Positions 1,899 through 13,229 are shown, counted from the first letter of the stretch. The stretch is DNA of 32,000 bases from Polaromonas sp. (GCA_030654695.1 JAURWY010000010.1:21445-53444), one strand, 5' to 3'. The notes: generated by a model from the letters alone, not told the origin. Numbers and translations: made by a program.

Positions 1899-2882
1899 TC
1901 AATCCAATTTAATTTGGGCTGACTTGATCAACTTGGCCCATTCATTCAAGTCTTCACTGATTCGCATCGCAAACTCTTCCGACGAATCCGCCACAGGCTC
2001 CATGGCATCAGCAGCGATACGGGCTTGAAAATCCGGCCGCTTGATGATGGATGCCACATCGTCATGGATCTTTTTCACCACCTCTTTGGGCATGCCGGCA
2101 GGCCCCATGAAGCCGTACCAAGCTTCAATGCGGAATCCGGGTAGCGTCTCGGCGATGGCAGGGACTTGCGGCATGGCCTTGGATCTCTTGGCGCTGGTCA
2201 CCGCCAGCGCTTTGAGTTTGCCGCTTTTAGACAACTGAATTGACGCGGTGATGCCACCAAAAATCAAAGGCACATGTCCCGCCATCACATCATTAACGCC
2301 TTGGCCAAATCCCTTGTAAGGCACATGGGTGATTTTCACATCGGCCATGTGTTTAACCATTTCCATTGCCAAGTGTTGCTGGCCTCCGGCGCCAGATGAA
2401 GCGTAAGTGATTTCGCCGGGTCGCTGTTTGGCTAAGGCAATGAGGCTCTTCAGGTCGTTGGCGGGAAAATTCGGATTCGCCATCAGTACAAAAGGACCGC
2501 TTGCCGCATTGATGATGGGCGTTAAGTCTTTGGCCGCGTTGTACGGAACGTTGCTCAATAAATTAGGCGCAATGGTGATGGAGGCATCTGCTGCAAACAA
2601 CAAGGTGTAACCGTCCGGTGCAGACTTGACCACAAAGTCAGTGCCGATGGTGCCACTGGCACCTGTTTTGTTCTCGACCACCACAGACTGTTTCCAAAGA
2701 TTGGAAAGTTCTTGCGACAAGATACGCCCATAAATATCAGGCGTGCCACCAGGCGGGAACGTCACAATGACTTTGACCGGTTTGTTGGGATAGGCTTGGG
2801 CCCAAGCGGCCATCGGGTTGATGGCAATGAGACACAAACTGACAGGCAAGACACTCAACCATTGGCGCAGAATTTTTGTCAT
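1899..2882 (-). CDS. Bug-family (TctC-like) tripartite tricarboxylate transporter substrate-binding protein
   Basis: Signal peptide followed by the hallmark AYPNKPVKVIVTFPPGGTPDIYGRILSQEL...VVVENKTGASGTIGTDFVVKSAPDGYTLLF. Confidence 0.9.
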   Translation of the reverse strand: MTKILRQWLSVLPVSLCLIAINPMAAWAQAYPNKPVKVIVTFPPGGTPDIYGRILSQELSNLWKQSVVVENKTGASGTIGTDFVVKSAPDGYTLLFAADASITIAPNLLSNVPYNAAKDLTPIINAASGPFVLMANPNFPANDLKSLIALAKQRPGEITYASSGAGGQQHLAMEMVKHMADVKITHVPYKGFGQGVNDVMAGHVPLIFGGITASIQLSKSGKLKALAVTSAKRSKAMPQVPAIAETLPGFRIEAWYGFMGPAGMPKEVVKKIHDDVASIIKRPDFQARIAADAMEPVADSSEEFAMRISEDLNEWAKLIKSAQIKLD

Positions 2883-2974
2883 GATTTTTTAATTCAACGT
2901 TAAAAAATGGTGATTCTAGCTTTAGTGTCGCCCAGTGAAACATGCTGCCGTACAGCGACATTCTTTCGAGAAGT

Positions 2975-3029
2975 TGTTATAGAAAATTCACTCCACAGTG
3001 ACGGAATGGTTCAGCTAGTGAGTGATTTT
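2975..3029. other. Left island junction (attL-like): native glmS-tail remnant + GT crossover + 30-nt island arm P'
   Basis: Sequence agaaaattcactccaca-GT-gacggaatggttcagctagtgagtgatttt. The minus strand of 2988-3005 reads tcc gtc act gtg gag tga (S V T V E stop), an orphan copy of the glmS C-terminus. 3009-3029 is the reverse complement (20/21) of 11359-11379. Confidence 0.75.
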
Positions 3030-3044
3030 CGGACGAACTTAATG

Positions 3045-4853
3045 CTACCCGCGACCGTCTTTTTTTTTGGAGACCAGCGTGATCATGTCCGCTCCAGGAA
3101 CCACGTCATATTCCCGTCCCTCTAGCCCAGAGCGATTTTTCTTGATCCCATCATTGACGATGGGCAGGTGCATATGCAGCGTCATTTGGTGCTCGCGTTT
3201 TTCGTTGTCGTAGAGCACATCAATCCGCTTGACCAAGCCACCGAGGTACTCCTTCTTCTGCACATCAGTCAAAGCGTCCAACTTCTCTACTTCGTCGCCA
3301 AACGCTTTCAACCAGTTGACCCACTTCCGAGATTCAGCCGTCCCCCCAAGCTCTAGCCTTACGCTGGCAAGCTCAGTTTCGGTTTTCCCAACCTCTTCCC
3401 GAATTCGTTTCAGGGTTGTTTCGTAGCTGACATCGTTAATCTTGCCGATCAACTTATTTGCCTCAAGATTACCAAGCGTATCGCTCATTGAGGCGTAGTG
3501 CTTCTGCAATCTGCGAATCTTGGCTTGAATCGCCCTGATCTCCACATCAGTGCGAATCATGATGCCACTCTCTTTGAGTAATCGATGTTTGACTTCTTCT
3601 TTCAGGGTGCTGGACTTAGAATGAAGTGACGTAACCAAATCCCAGACCAGCTTGTCTGTCTGATGGATATTCATAGCACGAGCGAAACCACAACTAAGAC
3701 CACGCTGCCATGGCGTGTCTGACCCGCCATTAACCACCCAAGCTCGCTCTTTGTTGGGGCAGTAGTAAGAAGACTCTGCACGTGCCTTGATGATGCGACC
3801 GCTAATAGGACGCCCACAATGACCGCAGTGCATGAAGTCACGCAACATGTAGAAGTTCTTTTCCGTGGCGTTCTTCTGTGATTGTCTGAGTACCTCGCTG
3901 GAGCGCTTGTGCTGAGCAGCATTCCAGATCGTTTGATCAACGATGCTTGGGCATTGAACTTCAATTTTTTGATTAGATTTGCTGTCCGTGTAGATGTAGT
4001 GCCCTGAATAATGAGTGTTCTTTAACAGCGCATTGATAGAGCCAATAGTCCACAAACCTTTCTTTCGGCGAGGGCTGACGCCATTGGAATCAAGCATTCC
4101 CTTAATGTGAGTCGCGGCACTACCTTTCACGACCTCATGGAAAATTCTTTTGACCCATATGGACTCATCTTCAACTACGACCAGCTTTTTATCAACCAGC
4201 TTGTAGCCGTAAGGTGGGGGACCACCATGCCAGCTACCAGAACGTACACGACTAAGTTTCCCAAGACGTGTACGCTCCGCGCGTGTGACATTGTCAAATT
4301 CGGCGACTGCATCCAGAAGCTGTTTCAGAAATTTGTCTTGCGGGGATGACAGATCAAACTGACCATCCTTGGTGTAAAGCGTGACGCCTTGCTTGTTGCA
4401 TTCATATCGGAAGACCGATGCAACATTGTCATTGCGTGACAAGCGCGATTGGTCATATACCCACAGATGCTTGACCAATCCCGCCTTCATCGCTACATAG
4501 AGAGAATTCAATTCAGGACGGTCAGCAATGTTTTCATGGTGTGAGCTACGTCCACCTTCGTTCCAGACCTTGAATTCAAAACCAAGATCATTAGCTTTCT
4601 TGACTCCTAGCTCACGCTGGGACTCAAGCGAAGTACCCTGCTCAGCCTGTGCGACTGTAGATACGCGGGTGTAGATGTGCAGTGTTAGGTCTGCCGATGT
4701 AACGCCAGTCACGGGAAGTCTCTCAAAATCTTGATCCTGCCTAAAAATTGAGCATATTCCCTTTGCGCTTGAATTCCTATGCGTAAAGGGAAAATCAGCA
4801 AAATATGTTGGGGTTGTCCTTCGACAGCCCATTGATGTCCTTTTAAAGGACAT
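3045..4853 (-). CDS. Large serine recombinase (resolvase catalytic domain + recombinase domain + zinc ribbon + coiled coil)
   Basis: Catalytic motif HIYTRVSTVAQAEQGTSLESQ...LWVYDQSRLSRND. Recombinase domain (GGPPPYGYKL...IFHEVV...). Zinc ribbon CGHCGRPISG...YYCPNK...LSCGF. Long C-terminal coiled coil. The true start is probably the GTG at 4712 (GAGAGA 6 nt upstream, giving MTGVTSADLTLHIYTRVST). The ATG at 4853 lies inside a palindrome cluster. Confidence 0.92.
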   Translation of the reverse strand: MSFKRTSMGCRRTTPTYFADFPFTHRNSSAKGICSIFRQDQDFERLPVTGVTSADLTLHIYTRVSTVAQAEQGTSLESQRELGVKKANDLGFEFKVWNEGGRSSHHENIADRPELNSLYVAMKAGLVKHLWVYDQSRLSRNDNVASVFRYECNKQGVTLYTKDGQFDLSSPQDKFLKQLLDAVAEFDNVTRAERTRLGKLSRVRSGSWHGGPPPYGYKLVDKKLVVVEDESIWVKRIFHEVVKGSAATHIKGMLDSNGVSPRRKKGLWTIGSINALLKNTHYSGHYIYTDSKSNQKIEVQCPSIVDQTIWNAAQHKRSSEVLRQSQKNATEKNFYMLRDFMHCGHCGRPISGRIIKARAESSYYCPNKERAWVVNGGSDTPWQRGLSCGFARAMNIHQTDKLVWDLVTSLHSKSSTLKEEVKHRLLKESGIMIRTDVEIRAIQAKIRRLQKHYASMSDTLGNLEANKLIGKINDVSYETTLKRIREEVGKTETELASVRLELGGTAESRKWVNWLKAFGDEVEKLDALTDVQKKEYLGGLVKRIDVLYDNEKREHQMTLHMHLPIVNDGIKKNRSGLEGREYDVVPGADMITLVSKKKDGRG

Positions 4854-4854
4854 C
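4757..4854. promoter_or_regulatory. Cluster of three dyad symmetries in the leader of the LSR gene
   Basis: TTCCCTTTGCGC (4757-4768) pairs with GCGTAAAGGGAA (4781-4792), 12-bp arms with 1 mismatch. GGGTTGTC-CTTC-GACAGCCC at 4811-4830. A perfect 21-nt palindrome GATGTCCTTT-T-AAAGGACATC at 4834-4854. Confidence 0.55.
4834..4854. repeat. Island palindrome copy 1 (GATGTCCTTT-T-AAAGGACATC)
   Basis: Perfect 10-nt arms around T4844. Located between the stop of the 327-aa ORF (4857) and the LSR gene. Confidence 0.9.
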
Positions 4855-4856
4855 TT

Positions 4857-5840
4857 TTAATGACTTGATACCTTGGTTCGGAGTCTATTCGCCGCTGGCG
4901 ACAACTTATTGGACTTATTTGCTTTGGACAGCTCCATCAATCTTGCTTTTTCAACCTTAATCCACTTTGTATGTTCTAGAAGTCGTTGAGCAATCTGAGG
5001 ATATTCAAACTCCGTCAATTCAACTGATTGATCAGACGGGAAATAGCCTCTAGCTGCGTTTTCAGCTAATGCTTCAAACTTCTTCAATGCCCTGAAAGTG
5101 ATCTTACTCATGATGATGCGGTCATCTTGCTCAATAGCATCCTTGCTTTTGCGTGGTCCATTCGGATCAAGCACGCCAGAGTAGCTTTTGCTCAAATTAC
5201 CTTTGGCTCCAAGTCGCCACAACTCCCAATTTGGCTTCGCTGACTTCAACCACAACAACCTCAAGCCAGTGAAGATCGCATTGGCATGCAATCGCTTACC
5301 CATCAACTTGACCTTAGCTTGCGTGTCCAAAATTTCTGGCGCTTTTAAATCATCAAGTAATTTTTTGATTTGCTTCAGGACATCAGACTGCTTCTGATTC
5401 AATGGTAAGGCTACCAAGACTGATGCATTCAAGCCCTCTTCATCCCGTCCATTTTTCAAATAAAAGTCCAAGTCGGCGTTGAGTTGATCAGCTGAAACCC
5501 CCACGCCAGCAGCAAGTACCGCAACTTGATGAACGGCGGGCTTTTTGAACGGATTGCCGAATGCCTGCAATCCATGCTGGAGCCACCAAGTTCTGAACAA
5601 GACTTTGTTCACATCACCAAACAAGTCGTACATCTCAAGCACACGCTCGAAGTCCGAAGGCAGACGCGCTTTGTCGGTATTGTTCAGCCCTTTAGTCTTG
5701 GCTTTTCTTGCCAATTCATACGTAGGACTCACCCTTAAAAACTCAAACATTAGCTGGTAGCCCGCCGTTGGTTGCGCATGCCAATTGGGTTGCGAGAAAT
5801 CGCCGCCCCTCAAAGTCCAAAGCATCAGTGTTTTAGGCAT
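4857..5840 (-). CDS. Hypothetical protein, 327 aa, immediately upstream of and co-oriented with the LSR
   Basis: Long ORF with island-like composition. Its stop is 3 nt from the annotated LSR ORF. The N-terminal segment NWHAQPTAGYQLMFEFLRVSPTYELARKA is faintly reminiscent of the WEFLRRNPxY motif of regulator-like domains on mobile elements. This is unverified. Confidence 0.7.
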   Translation of the reverse strand: MPKTLMLWTLRGGDFSQPNWHAQPTAGYQLMFEFLRVSPTYELARKAKTKGLNNTDKARLPSDFERVLEMYDLFGDVNKVLFRTWWLQHGLQAFGNPFKKPAVHQVAVLAAGVGVSADQLNADLDFYLKNGRDEEGLNASVLVALPLNQKQSDVLKQIKKLLDDLKAPEILDTQAKVKLMGKRLHANAIFTGLRLLWLKSAKPNWELWRLGAKGNLSKSYSGVLDPNGPRKSKDAIEQDDRIIMSKITFRALKKFEALAENAARGYFPSDQSVELTEFEYPQIAQRLLEHTKWIKVEKARLMELSKANKSNKLSPAANRLRTKVSSH

Positions 5841-5978
5841 ATAAATGTCAACAAATAATTTGCATAATTAGCAGTATACAAAATTAAATGACGAAATACA
5901 TACAATAGAAGCATGAACAAAACAAAAGACATTCAGTCCTTGTTTGATGTTCATAAAGCTCTTTCCAAAGGAATAAAA

Positions 5979-6785
5979 ATGAGCCAATCTATCGCCTCCA
6001 TCCCTACGTCTACAACTTCTACTGCTGCTGAAAATGCTGTTTCGGCATCCGCCACACTCAACATCCGTCAACGGATTGAAGCCTTGGCTGACAAGCGTGA
6101 AGTATGGGAATCGACTCTGTACTCACGCTCGAATACTGCGCTGTACTCGATCTTTGCTGAATGCTTGGCTTTGTATCGTGATCTGACAGAAGGTGACGGC
6201 GTCAAAGCCAAGAAAAGTGGCTTCACCGATTACATCAATCTCAAGGGCTATACGTTCAAAGAATCATCTCCTCTGAGTTTGAAAGTGATTCGTTGCGTTT
6301 TCGGTGATAAAGACCGTCGCCGTCTGTCCACTTATCACTCGGTCTTACTTGTCGCTATCGCCGACAAATGGGACGAGATGGAAGTTGCGCAGAAGATCGC
6401 TGATCGCGGTGGCGTACAGGAAATTTCCTTGACCAAGCCTGGCGGAATGACTGCAAAAGACAAAGCAAACGCCGCCCGCAACGCTTTGATGAATCAGTCC
6501 ATCGCATCACTGACCAGCGACGCTATTTCCAAGCAGTTCAACACGGAGAACATTGGAGATAACGCTGTTGCTGTTTTGACGCTCAATAGTGATGGCACGT
6601 ACAGCGTTCATTGTGTTGTTCGCAGCACAACCGCTGTCAATGCGGCTCTCACAAGTTATTTTTCCGCAAACAAAGAAGCACTGAAAGGACTTCAAGAGAA
6701 CAAGCAAATGCAAGACGATGAAGCTCAAAAAGCCTTGCTCATTTCTAACGCAGCCAACGATTCTCAAAATCAGGCTGCAGCTTGA
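5979..6785 (+). CDS. Hypothetical protein (268 aa from ATG 5979; alternative ATG at 5913)
   Basis: AAGGA lies 8-12 nt upstream of 5979. Ser/Thr/Ala-rich N-terminus, then a globular region (REVWESTLYSRSNTALYSIFAECLALYRDL...). Divergent from the 327-aa gene and followed by the ATPase gene. Confidence 0.7.
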   Translation: MSQSIASIPTSTTSTAAENAVSASATLNIRQRIEALADKREVWESTLYSRSNTALYSIFAECLALYRDLTEGDGVKAKKSGFTDYINLKGYTFKESSPLSLKVIRCVFGDKDRRRLSTYHSVLLVAIADKWDEMEVAQKIADRGGVQEISLTKPGGMTAKDKANAARNALMNQSIASLTSDAISKQFNTENIGDNAVAVLTLNSDGTYSVHCVVRSTTAVNAALTSYFSANKEALKGLQENKQMQDDEAQKALLISNAANDSQNQAAA

Positions 6786-6791
6786 ACCCAA

Positions 6792-6818
6792 TGAGTGCGG
6801 GATTTATCCCCGCACTCA
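6792..6818 (+). other. Perfect 10-bp hairpin between the 268-aa gene and the ATPase gene
   Basis: TGAGTGCGGG (6792-6801), 7-nt loop, CCCGCACTCA (6809-6818). No downstream T-tract, so it is not a canonical terminator. Confidence 0.6.
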
Positions 6819-6840
6819 ATCACACCAGATTGGAATAGAA

Positions 6841-7494
6841 ATGTTGAATGACAAAGATTTTTTGCCCACGACTCTGACCGAGTGCGTGATTTCTGATGTC
6901 CTTTCAAAGGACATGCTCACAAAGATCGTCACCAAGGTGATTCCGTTTCCTGCCTTTGGCAAGTGCGGCATCATCCTGCACGGTCCTTACGGGACCGGTA
7001 AAACTACTCTCGCAAAACTGCTCCCTAAATTGATTGAGAAGGAGTACGGGAGTGAAGACGCCTATTTAAATTTGCACCAATGTGCGCAGGGCTTGAACGG
7101 TTCATCATTGATGAATCGGATTCAGATTGCGACTCAGTTTGTTAGCCTGAATAAAAGTGGCTTGCACTTCACCATCTTGGATGAAGTAGACAACCTGACC
7201 GAAGCCGCTCAAGCATCGCTCAAGGCAATCATGACGGGACTGCATGGCATCTTCATCATGACGACTAACAACATTACTGCGTTGGACAGAGGCGTGGTGA
7301 ACCGCAGCCATGTTGTAAACATGATGGTGGCAAACCCCCAAGACTGGTTGCCACTCGTTAAACGAATCATTGATGGCTACGGTGCCAACTTACCACCAGA
7401 TTCTTCATTGATCCCCGTTATTGCGGCATGTAACGGCTCTGCCCGTGACATTAGTAGTGCCGCTGTTCAGGTCGCCATCCAATCCATCAAATAG
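6841..7494 (+). CDS. Clamp-loader (RFC small subunit / T4 gp44)-like AAA+ ATPase, truncated (217 aa, no collar domain)
   Basis: ATG at 6841 preceded by GGAA. Walker A GPYGTGKTT. Walker B with clamp-loader signature TILDEVDNLTEAAQASLKAIMT. FIMTTNNITALDRGVVNRSHVV parallels the xTxNxxxxIxxxLxSRC block of RFC/gp44. The short lid domain ends with a GSARDISSAAVQ-type segment. Confidence 0.85.
   Translation: MLNDKDFLPTTLTECVISDVLSKDMLTKIVTKVIPFPAFGKCGIILHGPYGTGKTTLAKLLPKLIEKEYGSEDAYLNLHQCAQGLNGSSLMNRIQIATQFVSLNKSGLHFTILDEVDNLTEAAQASLKAIMTGLHGIFIMTTNNITALDRGVVNRSHVVNMMVANPQDWLPLVKRIIDGYGANLPPDSSLIPVIAACNGSARDISSAAVQVAIQSIK
6896..6914. repeat. Island palindrome copy 2 (ATGTCCTTT-C-AAAGGACAT) inside codons ~19-25 of the ATPase gene
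   Basis: Perfect 9-nt arms around C6905. Confidence 0.9.
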
Positions 7495-7514
7495 AGCAAT
7501 GAACTCAAACCACC

Positions 7515-7541
7515 AAGCCAGCCAAAGTGCTGGCTTTTTTG
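7515..7541 (+). terminator. Rho-independent terminator after the ATPase gene
   Basis: AAGCCAGC (7515-7522), loop CAAAGT, GCTGGCTT (7529-7536), running into TTTTTTGTTG. Confidence 0.8.
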
Positions 7542-7542
7542 T

Positions 7543-7559
7543 TGTCCTTTGAAAGGACA
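7543..7559. repeat. Island palindrome copy 3 (TGTCCTTT-G-AAAGGACA)
   Basis: Perfect 8-nt arms around G7551. Lies between the terminator and the stop codon of the tyrosine recombinase gene (7561). Confidence 0.9.
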
Positions 7560-7560
7560 T

Positions 7561-8163
7561 TCACGATAGCAACTCAACAGCCGTACGCATCATCATGGGG
7601 TTCACGTCTATGTATTTCTGTGTGACTGCCATGGACCTGTGACCCGCCAGTTCCATGAGCACACGAACGGAAACGCCCATGTTTGCTAAGTTCGTAATGA
7701 ATGAACGGCGCGAACTGTGACTTGATGCACCTGTGATCCCTGCGCCTTTGTAGATGTAGTGAAAGTGCTGTGCCAGTGTGGAAGGTGTGAAGCCGCGATT
7801 GGGTTCTTTCTGAGTCGTGAATAAAGCACGGTTTGTGTCAGTCATGGTCACTGCCAATAATTCCTTCAACCTAAAGCGTGTTTGCAGGTAGTTTTTAATT
7901 TCTTCTTGTGCCTTTTCTGACAAGACCACGATCCTGCCACGTGAGCCCTTCGTTTGGTCTGCCGACAGACGTACTTCCTCAACGATGTTTCCGTCATTAG
8001 TCAATACATCGCAAAGCTGAAGCGATGCAAGTTCACCAACTCGCATGCCTGTTGCATTGAGCAGGGCGAACATTGCTCGATTTCTTGTCGAGTGCTTGCG
8101 TGATGCTATGTAGAGAAGGACCTTGCGAACTTCTTTTTCATTCAATACTTTTGCTTGTGCCAT
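7561..8163 (-). CDS. Short tyrosine recombinase (catalytic domain only, FimB/FimE-sized)
   Basis: Catalytic signature in order: TGMRVGEL (Arg), QTKGSRGRIV (Lys hairpin), SHSSRRSF (His-x-x-Arg), GHRSMAVTQKYIDV (His ... Tyr). Only about 35 residues precede the first Arg, so there is no N-terminal core-binding domain. AAGGA RBS upstream. Confidence 0.88.
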   Translation of the reverse strand: MAQAKVLNEKEVRKVLLYIASRKHSTRNRAMFALLNATGMRVGELASLQLCDVLTNDGNIVEEVRLSADQTKGSRGRIVVLSEKAQEEIKNYLQTRFRLKELLAVTMTDTNRALFTTQKEPNRGFTPSTLAQHFHYIYKGAGITGASSHSSRRSFITNLANMGVSVRVLMELAGHRSMAVTQKYIDVNPMMMRTAVELLS

Positions 8164-8702
8164 TTGTGTTTTTCCTTACAAATCAAATCTTTGACATGTA
8201 TTTAGTTTGATCCCATTGATTAGGTCGGACAAGCCTTTTGGGATAAAAAAGGTTCCTCTTGTAAATCAACGACTTAGCTCGAAATCAAAACTCCCTGCTA
8301 TTTGTTTTGATTTTTGTGGGACTCGTTCTGAGCGTGAGTTCCGCTGCCGATTGCCCTTGGTCATCACCGATCTGAAAATCGTTTGTAGTTTGTCCTGATG
8401 CGTCAGTTCATGACACAAACGAGCCATGCATGCAATTGCAAAAGTTGAATTCGTGAAAGCCGACACGAAAGTTCATCTTCGTGTTCAGATCGACGTTTGA
8501 GACGCTTTTTTGTGCCTTCCGTGTACGGGTCGCAGCTATGTGATTGCATCTCTTGTGCTTGGATCTGATCTGCGTCCTGAGCAATTTGCTGTACCAGTGT
8601 TTCATTGAACTCGATACCCATGTTTTTTATTCACATGAAATTCAGACATGGCTCCGCTATTAAAGGGTCAACAGACACCTCTCGCCACATCGAAAGGAGC
8701 AA

Positions 8703-9254
8703 TCACTCAGCAGAAGATGGGGAACATGAAGGCAGAAGAACATTCATCCAGTCGATGCTCTCCCTGTTTGCGAACAATGTGTTCTTTGTTGAATAGCCAA
8801 CCCATCCATGATCCCGATACGGTTTGACTATGACTTGACGACCACCAAATGGTGAGTCAGCCCAAATCGCTTTGACCTTTGACTCGACTATTTCAAAACG
8901 ATCCTCGCCCACTCCAAGATGGCAGTGGTAGTGCGGCTTCTGACCGTCATTCAGACCCTCAAGAATAGGAATGAACAAAAGATTTCCACGCCTGTTGCCG
9001 TACAGCGATTTGTCCAACTTCCATTTGAAGTACCTCATGCTCCCATGCAATAGCTGTAAGACATCGGGGTGATTCAATGGTTTCGTAATGTTGCCTTTGC
9101 GAAGGGAATTCCAAAGGTGATTGATGTCGAAGGTCAAAGTCAGTGCATGGGTGATGAGGTGTTCGTGCTGCATTGCCCATGCTTCGTTTTGGTCACGAAA
9201 TTTGTTCAACTTTGCTTTGTATTGGTCATTGAGTTGATCGGTCAGTGTTGTCAT
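8703..9254 (-). CDS. Small HUH-superfamily Rep-like protein (putative rolling-circle initiator)
   Basis: Ordered motifs: I ALTLTFD; II KPHYHCHLGV (His-hydrophobic-His), preceded by FKWKLDKSLYGNRRGNLLFIPILE as in phage/plasmid Rep (G2P-like) proteins; III GWVGYSTKN (YxxK). The ORF itself is solid. The function is inferred from motifs only. Confidence 0.6.
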   Translation of the reverse strand: MTTLTDQLNDQYKAKLNKFRDQNEAWAMQHEHLITHALTLTFDINHLWNSLRKGNITKPLNHPDVLQLLHGSMRYFKWKLDKSLYGNRRGNLLFIPILEGLNDGQKPHYHCHLGVGEDRFEIVESKVKAIWADSPFGGRQVIVKPYRDHGWVGYSTKNTLFANRESIDWMNVLLPSCSPSSAE

Positions 9255-9380
9255 AAAACTATTTATGCCAAACCAACAGAAACCACAAAAAAATCAAATG
9301 ATGGGTGCCGATCTTGGCTAGGAATCGAAATGACACGGCAATAGGCTCGATCTCATTCATCAACAAACAAGGAGATTTCA

Positions 9381-9839
9381 ATGAGTGCAATTCTTTCGAG
9401 TCTGAAATTGGTCAACGCAAAACGCCAGAATTCAATCGACCCGGTTGTCTTTCGTCGTAACAAGCTGAATGAAAAGCTGAAAGTTCAGATCGCTATGGCG
9501 CAGGCGATGAACAAGGGTGAAACGTTCACAGTGAAACGTATGCGCAACGTGCGTGATGCAGTCACAGGACAGACTTCACTCGTAGAAGTCAGCAAGCGAG
9601 TCAAGCAATGGTGGTTCGTGAACAACGACACCAAAAAGATTGCCGTTCAAATCTTCTACGGCAACAAGGTGATGGACCTTGCGAAGGGTAAGAACGCGGT
9701 CGAAGTTGCCAATGGCGACGAGCTAGTCAACGTTTTGTCAAAGCTCCAAGAAGCTGTACTTGATGGTTCGCTGGATGCTCAGATCGAACAGGCAGCGGAT
9801 TCGGTGAAGGCGCGCTTTGCGAAGTGCGCAAGGCAATGA
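9381..9839 (+). CDS. Hypothetical protein, 152 aa
   Basis: Strong RBS (AAGGAG 7 nt upstream). Plausible composition. Followed by a perfect hairpin. It resembles small conserved hypotheticals I associate with proteobacterial mobile elements, but I cannot verify that. Confidence 0.7.
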   Translation: MSAILSSLKLVNAKRQNSIDPVVFRRNKLNEKLKVQIAMAQAMNKGETFTVKRMRNVRDAVTGQTSLVEVSKRVKQWWFVNNDTKKIAVQIFYGNKVMDLAKGKNAVEVANGDELVNVLSKLQEAVLDGSLDAQIEQAADSVKARFAKCARQ

Positions 9840-9845
9840 TTGATC

Positions 9846-9872
9846 GTGAGCGTCCAGTGGCGGGACGCTCAC
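9846..9872 (+). terminator. Perfect 10-bp GC-rich hairpin after the 152-aa gene
   Basis: GTGAGCGTCC (9846-9855), loop AGTGGCG, GGACGCTCAC (9863-9872). The T-run follows only after the adjacent palindrome (9891-9895). Confidence 0.55.
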
Positions 9873-9891
9873 ATGTCCTTTGAAATGACAT
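9873..9891. repeat. Island palindrome copy 4 (ATGTCCTTT-G-AAATGACAT, one arm mismatch)
   Basis: Directly abuts the hairpin at 9846-9872. About 50 nt upstream of the 114-aa ORF. Confidence 0.8.
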
Positions 9892-9939
9892 TTTTCAACT
9901 AGCGCTGGCACCAAACTTAATGCACCGATAAATACATGT

Positions 9940-10284
9940 ATGAAGATCAATGAAGTCACAACCAATCTCAATACCTACGTTGCCACTGTCCGTGTTGTCT
10001 TGCGCAATGGAACGACCATGGCGAAAACTCATGTGATCGCTGATGGGATCAATCAAGCTCGAATGTTGCTCATGCACTTGTATGGCGAGAGCAACGTCTT
10101 GTTACTTCAAGCCGTTATCGATAAGGATATGACTGAAGGCACGAAGACGCTTACAGCATCTGAGTTGCAGGTCAAGTCAATGACTGACCGCGCCAAACAA
10201 CTGAATCAGCAAGCGAAACAGACGAGAGCACGGCAGTCATTAAAGGATGCTCAGCATAAGCTAAATTTGGCAAGCCAGAAATAA
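9940..10284 (+). CDS. Hypothetical protein, 114 aa (C-terminal basic/coiled region)
   Basis: ORF of island-like composition. No convincing RBS. Confidence 0.45.
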   Translation: MKINEVTTNLNTYVATVRVVLRNGTTMAKTHVIADGINQARMLLMHLYGESNVLLLQAVIDKDMTEGTKTLTASELQVKSMTDRAKQLNQQAKQTRARQSLKDAQHKLNLASQK

Positions 10285-10395
10285 TTAAGGTGTAGTTTTT
10301 AATTATCCAAATAGCGTTATTAAATTTAGAATTATTTATTTGTTAATTAACTAATTTAATAGAAAATTATAGAAAAAATAAGTTATTTAAATCTA

Positions 10396-10926
10396 TTATT
10401 TTTTCACTTCTTTGGCGATAGCTTTAGCAAGTTCTTCTCTTTCATAGCGCGCATTATCCATATCTTTCGATACTTTTTTCTTTATATTTTTTATATCATC
10501 TTCAGTTAGACCTGCAGCCAATGCTTTTTTATCGTTGGACTTTGATTGCACAATGTACCCAACAATTATGCATCCAAAAAACCATAGTAAACCCACGCCT
10601 AAAGACATAAAAAATGCTGCTATTGATGCTGCCATAATAAATGCACCATACATATAGTAATTTGCAGCCTCTGCCTTAAGCTCTTTTTGCATTAATTGAA
10701 TTGTTTCATCTAGAGGCTTCGCTCTATCCGTCAATTCCGTTAACATCTTAGTTAATACTTTAATTTCTGCAGTACAACTATTAATCTTATTCACATTTTC
10801 TTCTTCAATTGCTATTTTTTGTTGATATTCAACTTCTTTAAATTTAGCCGAGTTTGAAGTTACTTCACTTGAAATCTGCATTCTTTCTTTTATCAATTCA
10901 CTAAGTTCTGCCATTTTGGACTCCAA
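10396..10926 (-). CDS. Coiled-coil membrane protein with two adjacent TM helices (176 aa) in an extremely AT-rich segment
   Basis: N-terminal heptad-like region of about 85 aa. Hydrophobic hairpin YYMYGAFIMAASIAAFFMSLGVGLLWFFGCIIVGYIV. Charged C-terminal helix. Codon usage is very AT-biased, unlike the rest of the island. Confidence 0.7.
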   Translation of the reverse strand: MESKMAELSELIKERMQISSEVTSNSAKFKEVEYQQKIAIEEENVNKINSCTAEIKVLTKMLTELTDRAKPLDETIQLMQKELKAEAANYYMYGAFIMAASIAAFFMSLGVGLLWFFGCIIVGYIVQSKSNDKKALAAGLTEDDIKNIKKKVSKDMDNARYEREELAKAIAKEVKK

Positions 10927-11010
10927 TTGTTAATTTATTGTAAAAATTGTAACTTTATGTCTTTTCCTGCGTTCAGTCAATAGAGTGCAGCTGAATTAGC
11001 GTCCCGTTTG

Positions 11011-11058
11011 TTGACACATCTTGACTCAGACCATCAGATCTAAGTCGAGATGTGTCAA
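11011..11058. repeat. 16-bp inverted repeat (TTGACACATCTTGACT / AGTCGAGATGTGTCAA) with a 16-nt loop
   Basis: Arms at 11011-11026 and 11043-11058, 1 mismatch. Each arm carries a TTGACA hexamer. Located between the small ORF (stop 11065) and the AT-rich gene. Confidence 0.7.
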
Positions 11059-11064
11059 ATCATG

Positions 11065-11337
11065 TCATTCAACCCACAGGTCCAGCAACTCCGGCTCAAC
11101 CTTTAATGTGAGCCGTTCCATCCTGAGTTTCCCTTTCTTGTAGATAGAAAAGACATGCTCAGCACCAAGCAAGCAGCCATTGATTGAACGAGTGCCAGCC
11201 CTAGTCAACAGCTTGGCAATCGCCTCAAACGTCAATTGCTCACGTTCACGCAACAAAAAGACCCTATCAAACAGCCGTTGCTGACTGCTTGTATAGGGTC
11301 CTATGAAAAGCGCCTTGGTTTTCAGTCTGACGACCAT
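11065..11337 (-). CDS. Small hypothetical protein (90 aa from ATG 11337; the ORF extends to a GTG at 11370 inside the att arm), possible HTH
   Basis: The segment REREQLTFEAIAKLLTRAGTRSINGCLLGAEHVFSIYKKG looks like an HTH / recombinase-domain-like DNA-binding stretch. No clear RBS. Confidence 0.4.
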   Translation of the reverse strand: MVVRLKTKALFIGPYTSSQQRLFDRVFLLREREQLTFEAIAKLLTRAGTRSINGCLLGAEHVFSIYKKGKLRMERLTLKVEPELLDLWVE

Positions 11338-11358
11338 CAGCAGTGCTGACGCATCGTC

Positions 11359-11415
11359 AAAATTACTCACTAGCTGAACTACTCCACGGTGACGCTCTTC
11401 GCCAGATTCCGTGGT
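11359..11415. other. Right island junction (attR-like): 30-nt island arm P + GT crossover + native glmS sequence
   Basis: Sequence aaaattactcactagctgaactactccacg-GT-gacgctcttcgcc... The arm supplies the last codons and the TAG stop of the functional glmS. Confidence 0.75.
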
Positions 11416-13229
11416 TTGTCCACATCCGTCCCCCGCGCGCAGGCGGTGTGATACGCGAGCAATTGCAACGGCACCACGTGCAGCATGGGGCTCAGGGGGC
11501 CGTAGTGTTCGGGCATGCGGATGACGTGAATGCCTTCGCCGCTTTCAATGCGCGTGTCGGCGTCGGCCAGCACGTAGAGCACGCCGCCACGGGCCCGCAC
11601 TTCTTGCAAATTGCTTTTGAGCTTTTCAAGCAGGCTGTCGTTGGGAGCCACCGTGACCACCGGCATGGCGCTGGTCACCAGCGCCAGCGGGCCGTGTTTG
11701 AGCTCACCGGCCGGGTAGGCCTCGGCGTGGATGTAGCTGATTTCTTTCAGCTTGAGCGCGCCTTCCATGGCGATCGGGTAGTGCAGGCCGCGGCCTAAAA
11801 ACAGCGCATTTTCCATCTTCGCAAAGTCTTCTGACCAACTGATGATTTGCGGCTCCAGCGCCAGCACAGCTTGCAGCGCCGCCGGCAAGTGGCGCATGGC
11901 TTTCAAGTGCGCGGCTTCGTCTTCTTCCGTCAAGCGGCCTTTACTTTGCGCCAAGGCCAAGGTGAGTAAAAACAGACCCGCCAATTGCGCCGTGAAGGCC
12001 TTGGTGGACGCCACACCGATCTCGACGCCAGCGCGGGTGATGTAGGCCAACTTGCATTCGCGCACCATCGCCGAGGTGGCGACGTTGCAGATGGTCAGGG
12101 TTTGCGTCATGCCCAGGCTTTGCGCATGGCGCAGCGCGGCCAGCGTGTCGGCGGTTTCGCCGCTTTGTGTGATGGTGACGACCAGCGTGCGTGGGTTCGG
12201 CACGCTGGTGCGGTAGCGGTATTCGCTGGCGACTTCCACCTGCGTCGGAATGCCGGCAATGCTTTCCAGCCAATATTTGGCGGTGCAGCCGCTGTAGTAA
12301 CTGGTGCCGCAGGCCAGGATCAACACCGAATCAATGTCCTTGAAGGTGCGGTAAGCCGCGTCGCCAAACAGCTCGGGCACGATGGCGTTGACGCCTTCCA
12401 GCGTGTCGGCAATGGCGCGCGGCTGCTCAAAAATTTCTTTTTGCATGTAGTGGCGATACGGCCCGAGTTCGGCCGCGCCGCTGTGCGCTTGCACGGTTTT
12501 GACCTCGCGCTTGACGGCCTTGTGTTGGCGGTCAAAGACCCAGTATTTGCCCAGCTGAATGTCGATCAAATCGCCTTCTTCGAGGTAGACAATCTGGTCC
12601 GTCACGCCGGCCAGCGCCATCGCGTCACTGGCCAAAAAGTGCTCAGCGCCGTCTTTGCCGACGCCCAAAATCAAGGGCGAACCAGCGCGCGCGCCGACCA
12701 CGCGGTGCGGCTCGTCTTTGCAAAAAGCGGCAATGGCGTAGGCACCATGCAATTGCGTGACGGCGGCTTTCAGCGCCTCAAACAAGTCGCCGTCGTACAG
12801 GCTGTCGACCAAATGCACGATGACTTCGGTGTCGGTCTGGCTCTGAAACAGATAGCCTTTGGCCTGCAAAGCAGCACGCAATTCGTCATGGTTTTCAATG
12901 ATGCCGTTGTGCACCAAAGCCACTTTGCCGGGACGTTGTGCCGCGTCTGCGCCGCTGCCGTGGCTGAAATGTGGGTGCGCATTGTGCACCGCCGGCGCGC
13001 CGTGCGTGGCCCAGCGCGTGTGCGCAATGCCGGTGCCGCCTTCAAGGTGTTCGGCGCTGACCTGCGCTTGCAGTTCGGCCACGCGCGAGGTGCTGCGCGC
13101 TCGCTTCAGGCCGTCCACATACACCGCCACGCCGCACGAGTCGTAGCCGCGGTATTCAAGGCGTTGCAAACCCTGCACGAGGATGGGAACGATGTTGCGG
13201 TTAGAAACCGCGGCGACGATACCGCACAT
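11379..13229 (-). CDS. glmS: Glutamine--fructose-6-phosphate aminotransferase (isomerizing)
   Basis: MCGIVAAV N-terminal nucleophile Cys. GATase-2 domain plus two SIS domains. Canonical C-terminus [13 protein letters not shown]. Confidence 0.97.

Follow-up and report, generated by a model that had tools for sequence, protein, structure and literature searches.

Island-specific palindromes at gene ends and module joints in a family of freshwater Burkholderiales islands: candidate sites of a small Xer-like recombinase

We have analysed a short palindrome that occurs four times in a genomic island of Polaromonas sp. The island spans 8.4 kb (~2990 to ~11380) and is low in GC (~45% vs 60%). It lies in a stretch of 32,000 nucleotides (GCA_030654695.1 JAURWY010000010.1:21445-53444), hereafter called the window, whose coordinates are used throughout. 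The repeat is genuine, confined to the island and under functional constraint, and it belongs to a previously undescribed family of islands. We established directly the sites and their island specificity, their co-variation across the family, their position at stop codons, the similarity breakpoints and the exact cassette insertion/deletion (indel) at them, and the intact recombinase that accompanies them. As to their function, we tentatively favour the reading that the palindromes are the core or recombination sites of a minimal Xer-like recombinase encoded by the island, and that they would mark exchangeable modules.

The four copies differ in context. Copy 1 (4834-4854, with its 19-mer at 4835-4853) is perfect and has 10-nt arms, G-ATGTCCTTT-T-AAAGGACAT-C. 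It lies 3 nt beyond the stop of the gene for a 327-aa protein (p327) and ~120-140 nt upstream of the conserved part of a large serine recombinase (LSR). Copy 2 (6896-6914) is also perfect and stands in frame in the 5' end of a gene for an AAA+ ATPase. Copy 3 (7542-7560) has perfect 8-nt arms and one mismatch in the 19-mer; it is 0 nt from the stop of the gene for a 200-aa tyrosine recombinase, at a convergent 3'-3' junction behind the terminator of the AAA+ gene. Copy 4 (9873-9891) has one arm mismatch and lies 50 nt upstream of the gene for a 114-aa protein (p114). It forms a tandem with a GC hairpin at 9846-9872 (CGTCC...GGACG, with extended arms GTGAG...CTCAC), 7 nt past the stop of the DUF6641 gene; this hairpin, with its core CGTCCAGTGGCGGGACG at 9851-9867, represents in degenerate form a second, related type of palindrome, B. 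In addition, a half-site-like TTGTCCTT at 4814-4821 runs on to 4826 as a short dyad, TGTC-CTTC-GACA. The initial annotation of this DNA had placed the four copies and the half-site at these positions, and all were present when read from the sequence.

To judge the rarity of the motif, the pattern ATGTCCTTTNAAAGGACAT was searched in the window with up to 3 mismatches tolerated, and 100 dinucleotide-preserving shuffles served as the null. Matches were found at four places only, namely 4835-4853, 6896-6914, 7542-7560 and 9873-9891, and the number expected in the shuffles was 0.00 even with 3 mismatches, so the earlier statement that four copies are not chance is borne out. Throughout the 3.45-Mb assembly only these four match at 2 mismatches or fewer, and all other places need 3-4 substitutions, which upholds the island specificity that had also been claimed. 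The exact 17-mer core has 0 occurrences in 300 other genomes of the same family as the host.

The hallmark gene of the island family encodes p327, an all-alpha protein (4857-5840, minus strand). It gave 249 matches in the protein collection, chiefly from freshwater metagenomes and metagenome-assembled genomes of Burkholderiales. It was found in 14 loci of GTDB genomes, including Limnohabitans sp. Rim28, Polynucleobacter and Sapientia aquatica, and in at least 401 metagenome stretches, where it was confirmed by tblastn. No p327 match was obtained in plasmid or phage databases, and none for DUF6641 in phages. The relatives of p327 in IMG/VR are only 30-35% identical, without core genes or repeated palindromes; these distant relatives (loci L111-L119) stand on viral or prophage contigs of 17-40 kb, several of them near one end, and their neighbours gave no informative Pfam matches. 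We found no published description of this island family in the literature on DUF6641, Limnohabitans, Polynucleobacter and island recombinases or palindromes.

An unbiased scan of the related loci for 8+1+8 palindromes revealed that the motif of the window is one allele of a family-wide dyad, YGTC-N4-N-N4-GACR, which extends up to 25 bp. A total of 206 sites were counted in 907 kb, compared with 21.6 in shuffles; several of the site counts used a motif filter (N-GT-[CT]...). At least ten sequence classes differ in their inner bases: TGTCCTTT, TGTCGTGT, TGTCGTTT, TGTCCTGT, TGTCGGGT, CGTCC[AC]GT, CGTCTAGT, CGTCCAGA, CGTCCTTT and CGTTACTT. Copies are alike within one island and different from island to island. 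The exact TGTCCTTT form is found in the closest relatives of the window island (L019-21, L026 and L031), and TGTCGTGT-N-ACACGACA in L014 (four exact copies and a variant), L005 and L010. The class TGTCGTTT occurs in L029 and L030, and TGTCCTGT, which is 25 bp long with GATT...AATC, in L045-L052. The B type, CGTCC[AC]GT, is present in L013, L023-25, L007-9 and L027, and is also dominant in L006 and L033-35. Nine sites of the CGTCTAGT class were found in L011, and CGTCCAGA in L061, L063-65 and L071, while the most distant clade carries CGTTACTT-N-AAGTAACG, which is 25 bp with TAAG...CTTA. The initial annotation had named two outcomes that would speak against its proposal, a genome-wide REP-type repeat and absence from homologous islands. 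Neither is the case, and homologous islands carry the motif or a co-varying version of it.

The 'TGTC' (A) and 'CGTC' (B) types often stand in tandem, ~23-37 nt apart from start to start, and such tandems recur in L013, L014, L026 (three times), L027 and L029. Half-sites also mix, giving hybrids such as CGTCCCGT/CGTCCAGT and TGTCCGTT/TGTCCTTT. When the identity of core proteins was used to predict the palindrome class, the area under the curve (AUC) was 0.86 for p327, 0.86 for AAA+, 0.79 for the 290-aa protein p290, 0.77 for the recombinase and 0.52 for DUF6641; this ranking is crude and confounded by linkage. Considering that the copies are uniform within islands and different between them, and that copy 2 is conserved at synonymous sites, we conclude from these comparisons that a sequence-specific factor, encoded by the island, almost certainly reads the palindromes. 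That one sequence prevails in each island, and that pairing continues through the centre, speaks for their recognition as double-stranded DNA.

These distributions bear on the second proposal of the initial annotation, in which the palindrome is a hairpin origin or nick site for a Rep-like protein of the HUH type; a selfish repeat of the kind formed by repetitive extragenic palindromes (REPs) and their associated tyrosine transposases (RAYTs) is a similar idea. The window island does encode a small HUH-like protein of 183 aa (8703-9254, minus strand), and the sites are palindromic. However, this protein is private to the window island: among 106 related loci, which retain the palindromes, none encodes a homologue of it, and it gave no Pfam, PHROG, NCBIfam or PDB sequence match. 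We therefore consider the proposal very improbable and reject the nick-site claim. The palindromes resemble REPs in being short and extragenic and in following genes. REPs, however, are spread over the genome in hundreds of copies together with a RAYT gene, whereas the present repeat is confined to the island, absent from the host chromosome outside it and from the 300 related genomes, and accompanied by no conserved Y1 transposase; a RAYT gene was sought by PF01797 without a match. A genome-wide REP-type repeat was thus rejected.

The positions of the sites relative to genes were counted for 140 sites in non-redundant loci, with open reading frames (ORFs) of related loci called by a longest-ORF heuristic and ORFs of at least 90 aa used for the after-stop class; the loci are related by descent, and the counts are not independent events. 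More than half of the sites (76, 54%) lie 0-60 nt after an ORF stop, where 6.5 were expected, which is an enrichment of ~12x. Seventeen sites are within the first 120 nt of an ORF (19.1 expected), 15 are elsewhere inside genes (89.2 expected) and 32 are otherwise intergenic (25.1 expected). Among the after-stop sites, the mode is 0-2 nt from the stop (23/76), and many sites lie between convergent genes. With all sites turned to the direction of the upstream gene, the consensus lengthens to AAG-YGTC...GACR-CTT, and the left arm often contains the stop codon. The slot 0-6 nt after the p327 stop holds a palindrome in L006, L007, L010, L013, L014, L019, L023, L026 and L029, the recombinase stop adjoins a site in the window and several relatives, and in L019 three successive cargo genes each have a copy 1-9 nt past the stop.

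Since the sites stand directly after stop codons, they could be elements of RNA, that is, hairpins in the 3' untranslated region (and in the 5' coding region) that terminate, stabilise or process mRNA, possibly through an island-encoded RNA-binding protein. The extended GC stems of the B type (dG -17.9 kcal/mol at 9846-9872), with their terminator-like score, and a slight preponderance of G.U over A.C among sense-strand mismatches (9 vs 2, p = 0.065) point the same way. Nevertheless, we regard this explanation as improbable. The A-type hairpin is weak (-7.7 kcal/mol, and -1.7 for copy 4), and no downstream T-run was seen across 74 oriented sites, so the A type lacks both the GC-rich stem and the U-tract of an intrinsic terminator, and the B type has a strong stem without a regular T-run. 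The AAA+ gene already has a canonical terminator of its own (7515-7541, plus strand; GC stem and T-run), which lies ahead of copy 3 and is distinct from the palindrome. In addition, the complementarity continues through the centre, which is needless for a hairpin loop, and wobble pairs make up only a minority of the mismatches. Were the sites independent terminators, they would not have a common sequence in each island and switch as a set. No Rfam family matched in window 2800-11500.

Copy 2 shows that the constraint acts on the nucleotide sequence. Its centre lies 64 nt past the AAA+ start codon, and it is read as GAT GTC CTT TCA AAG GAC ATG (D V L S K D M, within the codons S-D-V-L-S-K-D-M). 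In a 150-nt alignment with L019 and L026, whose proteins are 65-75% identical here, the longest invariant stretch is a 21-nt run that contains copy 2 and includes all third codon and synonymous positions. In other islands, an equivalent in-frame copy (V-x-S-x-D, e.g. V-Q-S-L-D) is found ~55-70 nt into the p290 gene.

Intragenic copies of this kind, close to 5' ends and under constraint in their nucleotide sequence, would suit a roadblock to transcription, and they lead to the explanation that the initial annotation had put first, an operator that unites the island genes in one regulon. In its broader form, a dimeric island-encoded protein would bind the 17-19-bp dyad and control or insulate the transcription of modules, either as a roadblock at gene ends and at about +60 in first genes or from afar, in the manner of KorB and KorA on IncP plasmids. 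The candidate binders would be p327, p290 together with the AAA+ protein, or p114. The architecture of the dyad fits this proposal: an 8+1+8 arrangement around a free central base is what lambda-type operators classically show, and the independent assortment of half-sites, with mostly non-wobble mismatches, is as expected for one monomer per half-site. The class tracks the p327/p290/AAA module (AUC 0.79-0.86) and not DUF6641 (0.52). Copies 1 and 4 do sit upstream of genes, the p114 gene in three islands being preceded at 18-50 nt by copy 4 or its equivalent, and no recent rearrangements were seen between related contigs.

The positions, however, do not fit the operator. With 76 of 140 sites 0-60 nt after stops, and many between convergent genes that have no promoter there, few remain for promoter regions. 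The divergent p327/p290 promoter region of the window island is without a copy, and no promoter-like match was found at the four copies. Furthermore, a helix-turn-helix, ribbon-helix-helix or winged helix-turn-helix was sought in the core proteins with profile libraries and gave no match, and no known DNA-binding fold was recognised in them. The AlphaFold models of p327 (predicted local distance difference test, pLDDT, 82) and p290 (pLDDT 73) had no Foldseek match in the PDB, and p327 had none in BFVD either. The operator by itself would also leave unexplained the exact cassette indel, the enrichment of breakpoints and the conserved second recombinase that are described below. Accordingly, the earlier proposal fits the dyad geometry, its single regulon is not supported as stated, and we consider an operator or roadblock function a serious possibility, though somewhat less likely than that of recombination sites.

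The reading of the palindromes as recombination sites draws on their coincidence with the joints of modules. Similarity between the window and L013 comes in gene-sized blocks, one of which starts at 7560 (copy 3) while another ends at 9877 (copy 4), and similarity between L023 and L013 stops at 10952, where a site finishes. When blocks of at least 85% identity were taken from all pairs, 35 of their 293 internal ends fell no more than 25 nt from a site, compared with a random mean of 5.9 and maximum of 14 (~6x). The AAA-p290-p327 module has palindromes at its borders, and with respect to the recombinase it has one orientation in 11 loci and the other in 10. The clearest event was found between L102 and L097. 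In L102, a 1.4-kb segment with a 108-aa ORF and an RNase_T-like gene lies between two 25-bp palindromes, TAAGCGTTACTT-N-AAGTAACGCTTA, which differ at the central base only; in L097, a single palindrome joins the left flank of the first L102 site to the right flank of the second. A comparison of close relatives listed indels in 20 rows, several of them repeated across sister loci, which amount to ~12 distinct events, and about half of these abut a palindrome that is retained at the empty site. The p114 cassette was found in three slots. It is preceded by a palindrome in 4 of 6 copies (the window, L019, one of two in L026 and one of two in L013), and the block formed by B, A and the 5' end of p114 is common to the window and L026 in a different context. 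Modules bounded by sites thus occur in different contexts, as the indel, the breakpoints, the two orientations and the p114 slots indicate.

The second line of evidence for recombination sites is the company that the sites keep. Core genes were counted in the 22 non-redundant loci whose p327 gene has 4 kb or more of flank on either side. The 200-aa recombinase was found beside p327 in 21 of them and DUF6641 in 18; AAA+ (10/22) and p290 (9/22) are divergent and probably under-detected. On this comparison, the conserved core comprises p327, the 200-aa recombinase, DUF6641, p290 and the clamp-loader-like AAA+ protein. The integrase, on the other hand, varies: it is an LSR in the window and L013 and a tyrosine integrase of ~430 aa in L023, L026 and L027. 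As the integrase varies while the small recombinase is conserved, the small recombinase is a second, core recombinase with another job.

This small recombinase (7561-8163, minus strand) consists of a catalytic domain only. It is catalytically complete, keeping R41, K72, H149, R152, H175 and Y184, and is closest to archaeal XerA and to XerD. Compared with models and structures of XerA, XerD and XerC, the residues R, K, H-x-x-R, H and Y all align, with scores below the equivalog cut-offs. It aligns solely to the catalytic domain of XerA and XerD, and the N-terminal core-binding domain is missing. p327 may supply site recognition in place of this domain.

We propose the following mechanism. The four copies would be the window island's allele of a family-wide double-stranded DNA dyad, (AAG)-YGTC-NNNT-N-ANNN-GACR-(CTT), of 17-25 bp, which, read by an island-encoded protein, would mark gene 3' ends and the joints of exchangeable modules. 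The likeliest reader is the conserved 200-aa Xer-like tyrosine recombinase, which probably works with the p327 encoded beside it. The outer bases would serve as recombinase-binding arms, and the central ~7 bp (TTT-N-AAA here) as the region of strand exchange, which would have to match between partner sites. A need for matching centres would explain both the likeness of all copies within an island and the division of islands into discrete classes. An exchange between two sites would lead to insertion, deletion or inversion of the intervening segment, and in this way give rise to the mosaic, cassette-like architecture across the family. The 25-bp classes fit a core-site layout of 9+7+9. We infer that the recombinase, with or without p327, would bind and cut the sites, at which positions it would cut, and that recombination would still be going on.

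Several observations weigh against recombination sites. First, the geometry is unusual. The site is wholly palindromic, whereas the core sites of tyrosine recombinases typically have an asymmetric overlap region and longer arms, and the 17-19-bp class of the window leaves 5-6 bp per arm. Full symmetry and a total length of 17-19 bp are usual in dimer operators and unusual in such core sites. The free mixing of half-sites and the mostly non-wobble arm mismatches suit dimer binding equally. Second, traces of the reaction are few: no inversion was found when loci with nucleotide identity of at least 75% were compared in pairs, and a palindrome at both ends was seen in one indel only (L102/L097). 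Homologous recombination could occasionally use the 25-bp repeats, and recombination at the intragenic copy 2 would break the ATPase gene. Third, the association with genes is loose. A strict palindrome follows only ~22-25% of the p327 and recombinase genes, and the class follows the identity of p327 and AAA+ (AUC 0.86) a little more closely than that of the recombinase (0.77). A BrnT/BrnA cassette (77% nucleotide identity) is bracketed by TGTCCTGT sites in L051 (4040-4674) and by sites of the TGTCGT[TG]T type in L030 (5209-5853), so the sites follow the island and not the cassette.

Carried further, the recombination-site reading suggests a self-contained platform for gene capture and shuffling that is distinct from integrons and pdif modules. 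The recombinase and p327 would recombine symmetric, stop-abutting palindromes of 17-25 bp, and islands of 8-15 kb in freshwater Burkholderiales would thereby collect, lose and invert single-gene cassettes (toxin-antitoxin, caspase-like and nuclease genes), with the classes as mutually incompatible exchange groups. We put this forward as a conjecture, which may well prove too far-reaching.

The dif and pdif modules of Acinetobacter plasmids rely on a 28-bp site (11+6+11) with asymmetric XerC and XerD arms and on the host XerC and XerD (PMC6449649, PMC13141974, PMC7399989). On the one hand, the likeness to the islands is considerable: many copies of one short site bracket accessory modules in a mobile element, with varying contexts and orientations, a Xer-type recombinase is concerned, and the evidence is mostly comparative in both cases. 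On the other hand, the palindromes here are 17-25 bp long, fully symmetric with an odd centre, and divided into many island-specific classes, unlike the 28-bp site that resembles the host dif. The candidate enzyme here is a single island-encoded recombinase with a catalytic domain only, and the elements are islands of freshwater Burkholderiales and not plasmids.

In comparison with integron attC sites, both are palindromic sites at or in the stop of a cassette ORF, with conserved outer and variable inner bases. In both, the sites of one array are alike, which for integrons holds in the sedentary chromosomal kind, and both have a tyrosine recombinase alongside and some defence-like cargo. However, attC sites are imperfect and 57-141 bp long, with R''/L''/L'/R' boxes (RYYYAAC...GTTRRRY) and extrahelical bases, and their substrate is folded single-stranded DNA. 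The sites of the window family are near-perfect palindromes of 17-25 bp with GTC...GAC outer bases and lack these attC features. The integron integrase IntI is ~320 aa long and has both domains and a specific insertion, whereas the small recombinase is a catalytic domain only; against the integron-integrase models it scored 44.7 and 30.5 bits, compared with cut-offs of 265 and 435. An attI site, a Pc promoter and a one-directional array, which are features of integrons, were not seen here, and the sites do not clearly travel with the cassette.

The operators of KorB (OB) and KorA (OA) on IncP plasmids and the 17-bp operators of the lambda type are short dyads, and KorB and KorA govern a global regulon. 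The islands share with the Kor system short, element-specific perfect dyads that are scattered over the backbone, some of them intragenic or far from promoters, and with the lambda type the 8+1+8 geometry. They differ in that no ParB/KorB-like or helix-turn-helix protein was detected, and in that sites lie after stops and breakpoints and an indel lie at sites. The fimS switch of FimB and FimE and the R64 shufflon with Rci and its sfx sites are invertible segments served by small tyrosine recombinases. Here too there is a tyrosine recombinase of ~200 aa, short inverted sites, some of them in coding sequence, and a module in both orientations. However, no recent inversion was found in the islands, the sites are many per element and mostly at gene ends, and the small recombinase scored 28 bits against the Fim-type NCBIfam models, far below the cut-off of 221.

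If the palindromes are recombination sites, they would represent a third independent solution for modular gene exchange in mobile elements, after integron attC and Acinetobacter pdif, one that relies on a minimal recombinase and on symmetric sites of unusual shortness. Being class-specific and served by a 200-aa enzyme, such sites could then find use as orthogonal tools for recombination. Should the palindromes be operators or insulators instead, they would reveal a new family of islands with a global control circuit like that of a plasmid, and with a reader of unknown fold. Either way, the family comprises at least 400 environmental members with five conserved genes, two of them without a known relative, and a diagnostic DNA motif. 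Its hosts are abundant lake bacteria (Limnohabitans, Polynucleobacter and Oxalobacteraceae) whose island biology is little known.

The remaining features of the window island are as follows. The p290 gene (5913-6785, plus strand) is divergent from the p327 gene, and its product is highly variable between islands. The 217-aa AAA+ ATPase (6841-7494, plus strand) is like the clamp loader and replication factor C (RFC) and is without a collar domain. DUF6641 (9381-9839, plus strand) is a conserved core gene, and p114 (9940-10284, plus strand) is an accessory protein whose slot differs between islands. Searches of Pfam, PHROGs, NCBIfam and PADLOC gave no match for p327, p290, p114 or the 183-aa protein, and PDB sequence searches were empty for p327, p290 and the 183-aa protein.

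The LSR, the integrase of the island (3045-4853, minus strand), is outside the conserved core, other islands using the ~430-aa tyrosine integrases. Its annotated ATG falls within copy 1. A sister island at the same glmS site in Limnohabitans sp. Rim28 (L013) has an LSR that is 86% identical and aligns only from residue 43; the first 42 residues of the LSR ORF (window 4712-4853) have no counterpart in this homologue. Judging from this alignment, the true start of the LSR is probably further downstream than the annotated ATG. The island borders on glmS at the 3' end of this gene, where the product terminates in AKSVTVE*, and the right end of the island overlaps the glmS stop codon. The two island ends (2985-3030 and 11360-11395) share ACTCCACNGTGACG directly and GTTCAGCTAGTGAGTGATTTT / AAAATTACTCACTAGCTGAAC inverted; by their sequence, they look like the attL/attR pair of the LSR.

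The cargo between palindromes was viewed in L019 (6337-12561), L026 and L027. It includes a 599-aa Peptidase_C14 (caspase-like) protein, a 967-aa PKD/GH113 protein, and H-NS, MORN and NYN proteins, together with an RNase_T-like exonuclease that recurs in many islands. Judged by these matches, the cargo has a defence or accessory flavour.

A second homologue of the small recombinase, N-terminally shorter and with 47-49% identity, is encoded in contig C25 of genome G000 (1638-2099). No p327, p290, AAA+ or DUF6641 is nearby, and no repeated palindrome occurs in the first 15 kb; this homologue may be a remnant or part of another element. Upstream of the small recombinase, ~0.5-1 kb is without a convincing or conserved gene (window 8164-8702, L019 1361-2355, L013 5990-7124). 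The first ~170 nt of this gene-poor stretch are conserved with L013 and L026, and the stretch could hold a promoter, an RNA or an origin. Finally, window 10285-10990 is very AT-rich (35% GC) and encodes a 176-aa membrane protein with two transmembrane segments (10396-10926, minus strand) that has no homologue in the related loci; this segment stands in place of the palindrome pair that closes the cargo region of L013 (2199/2223).

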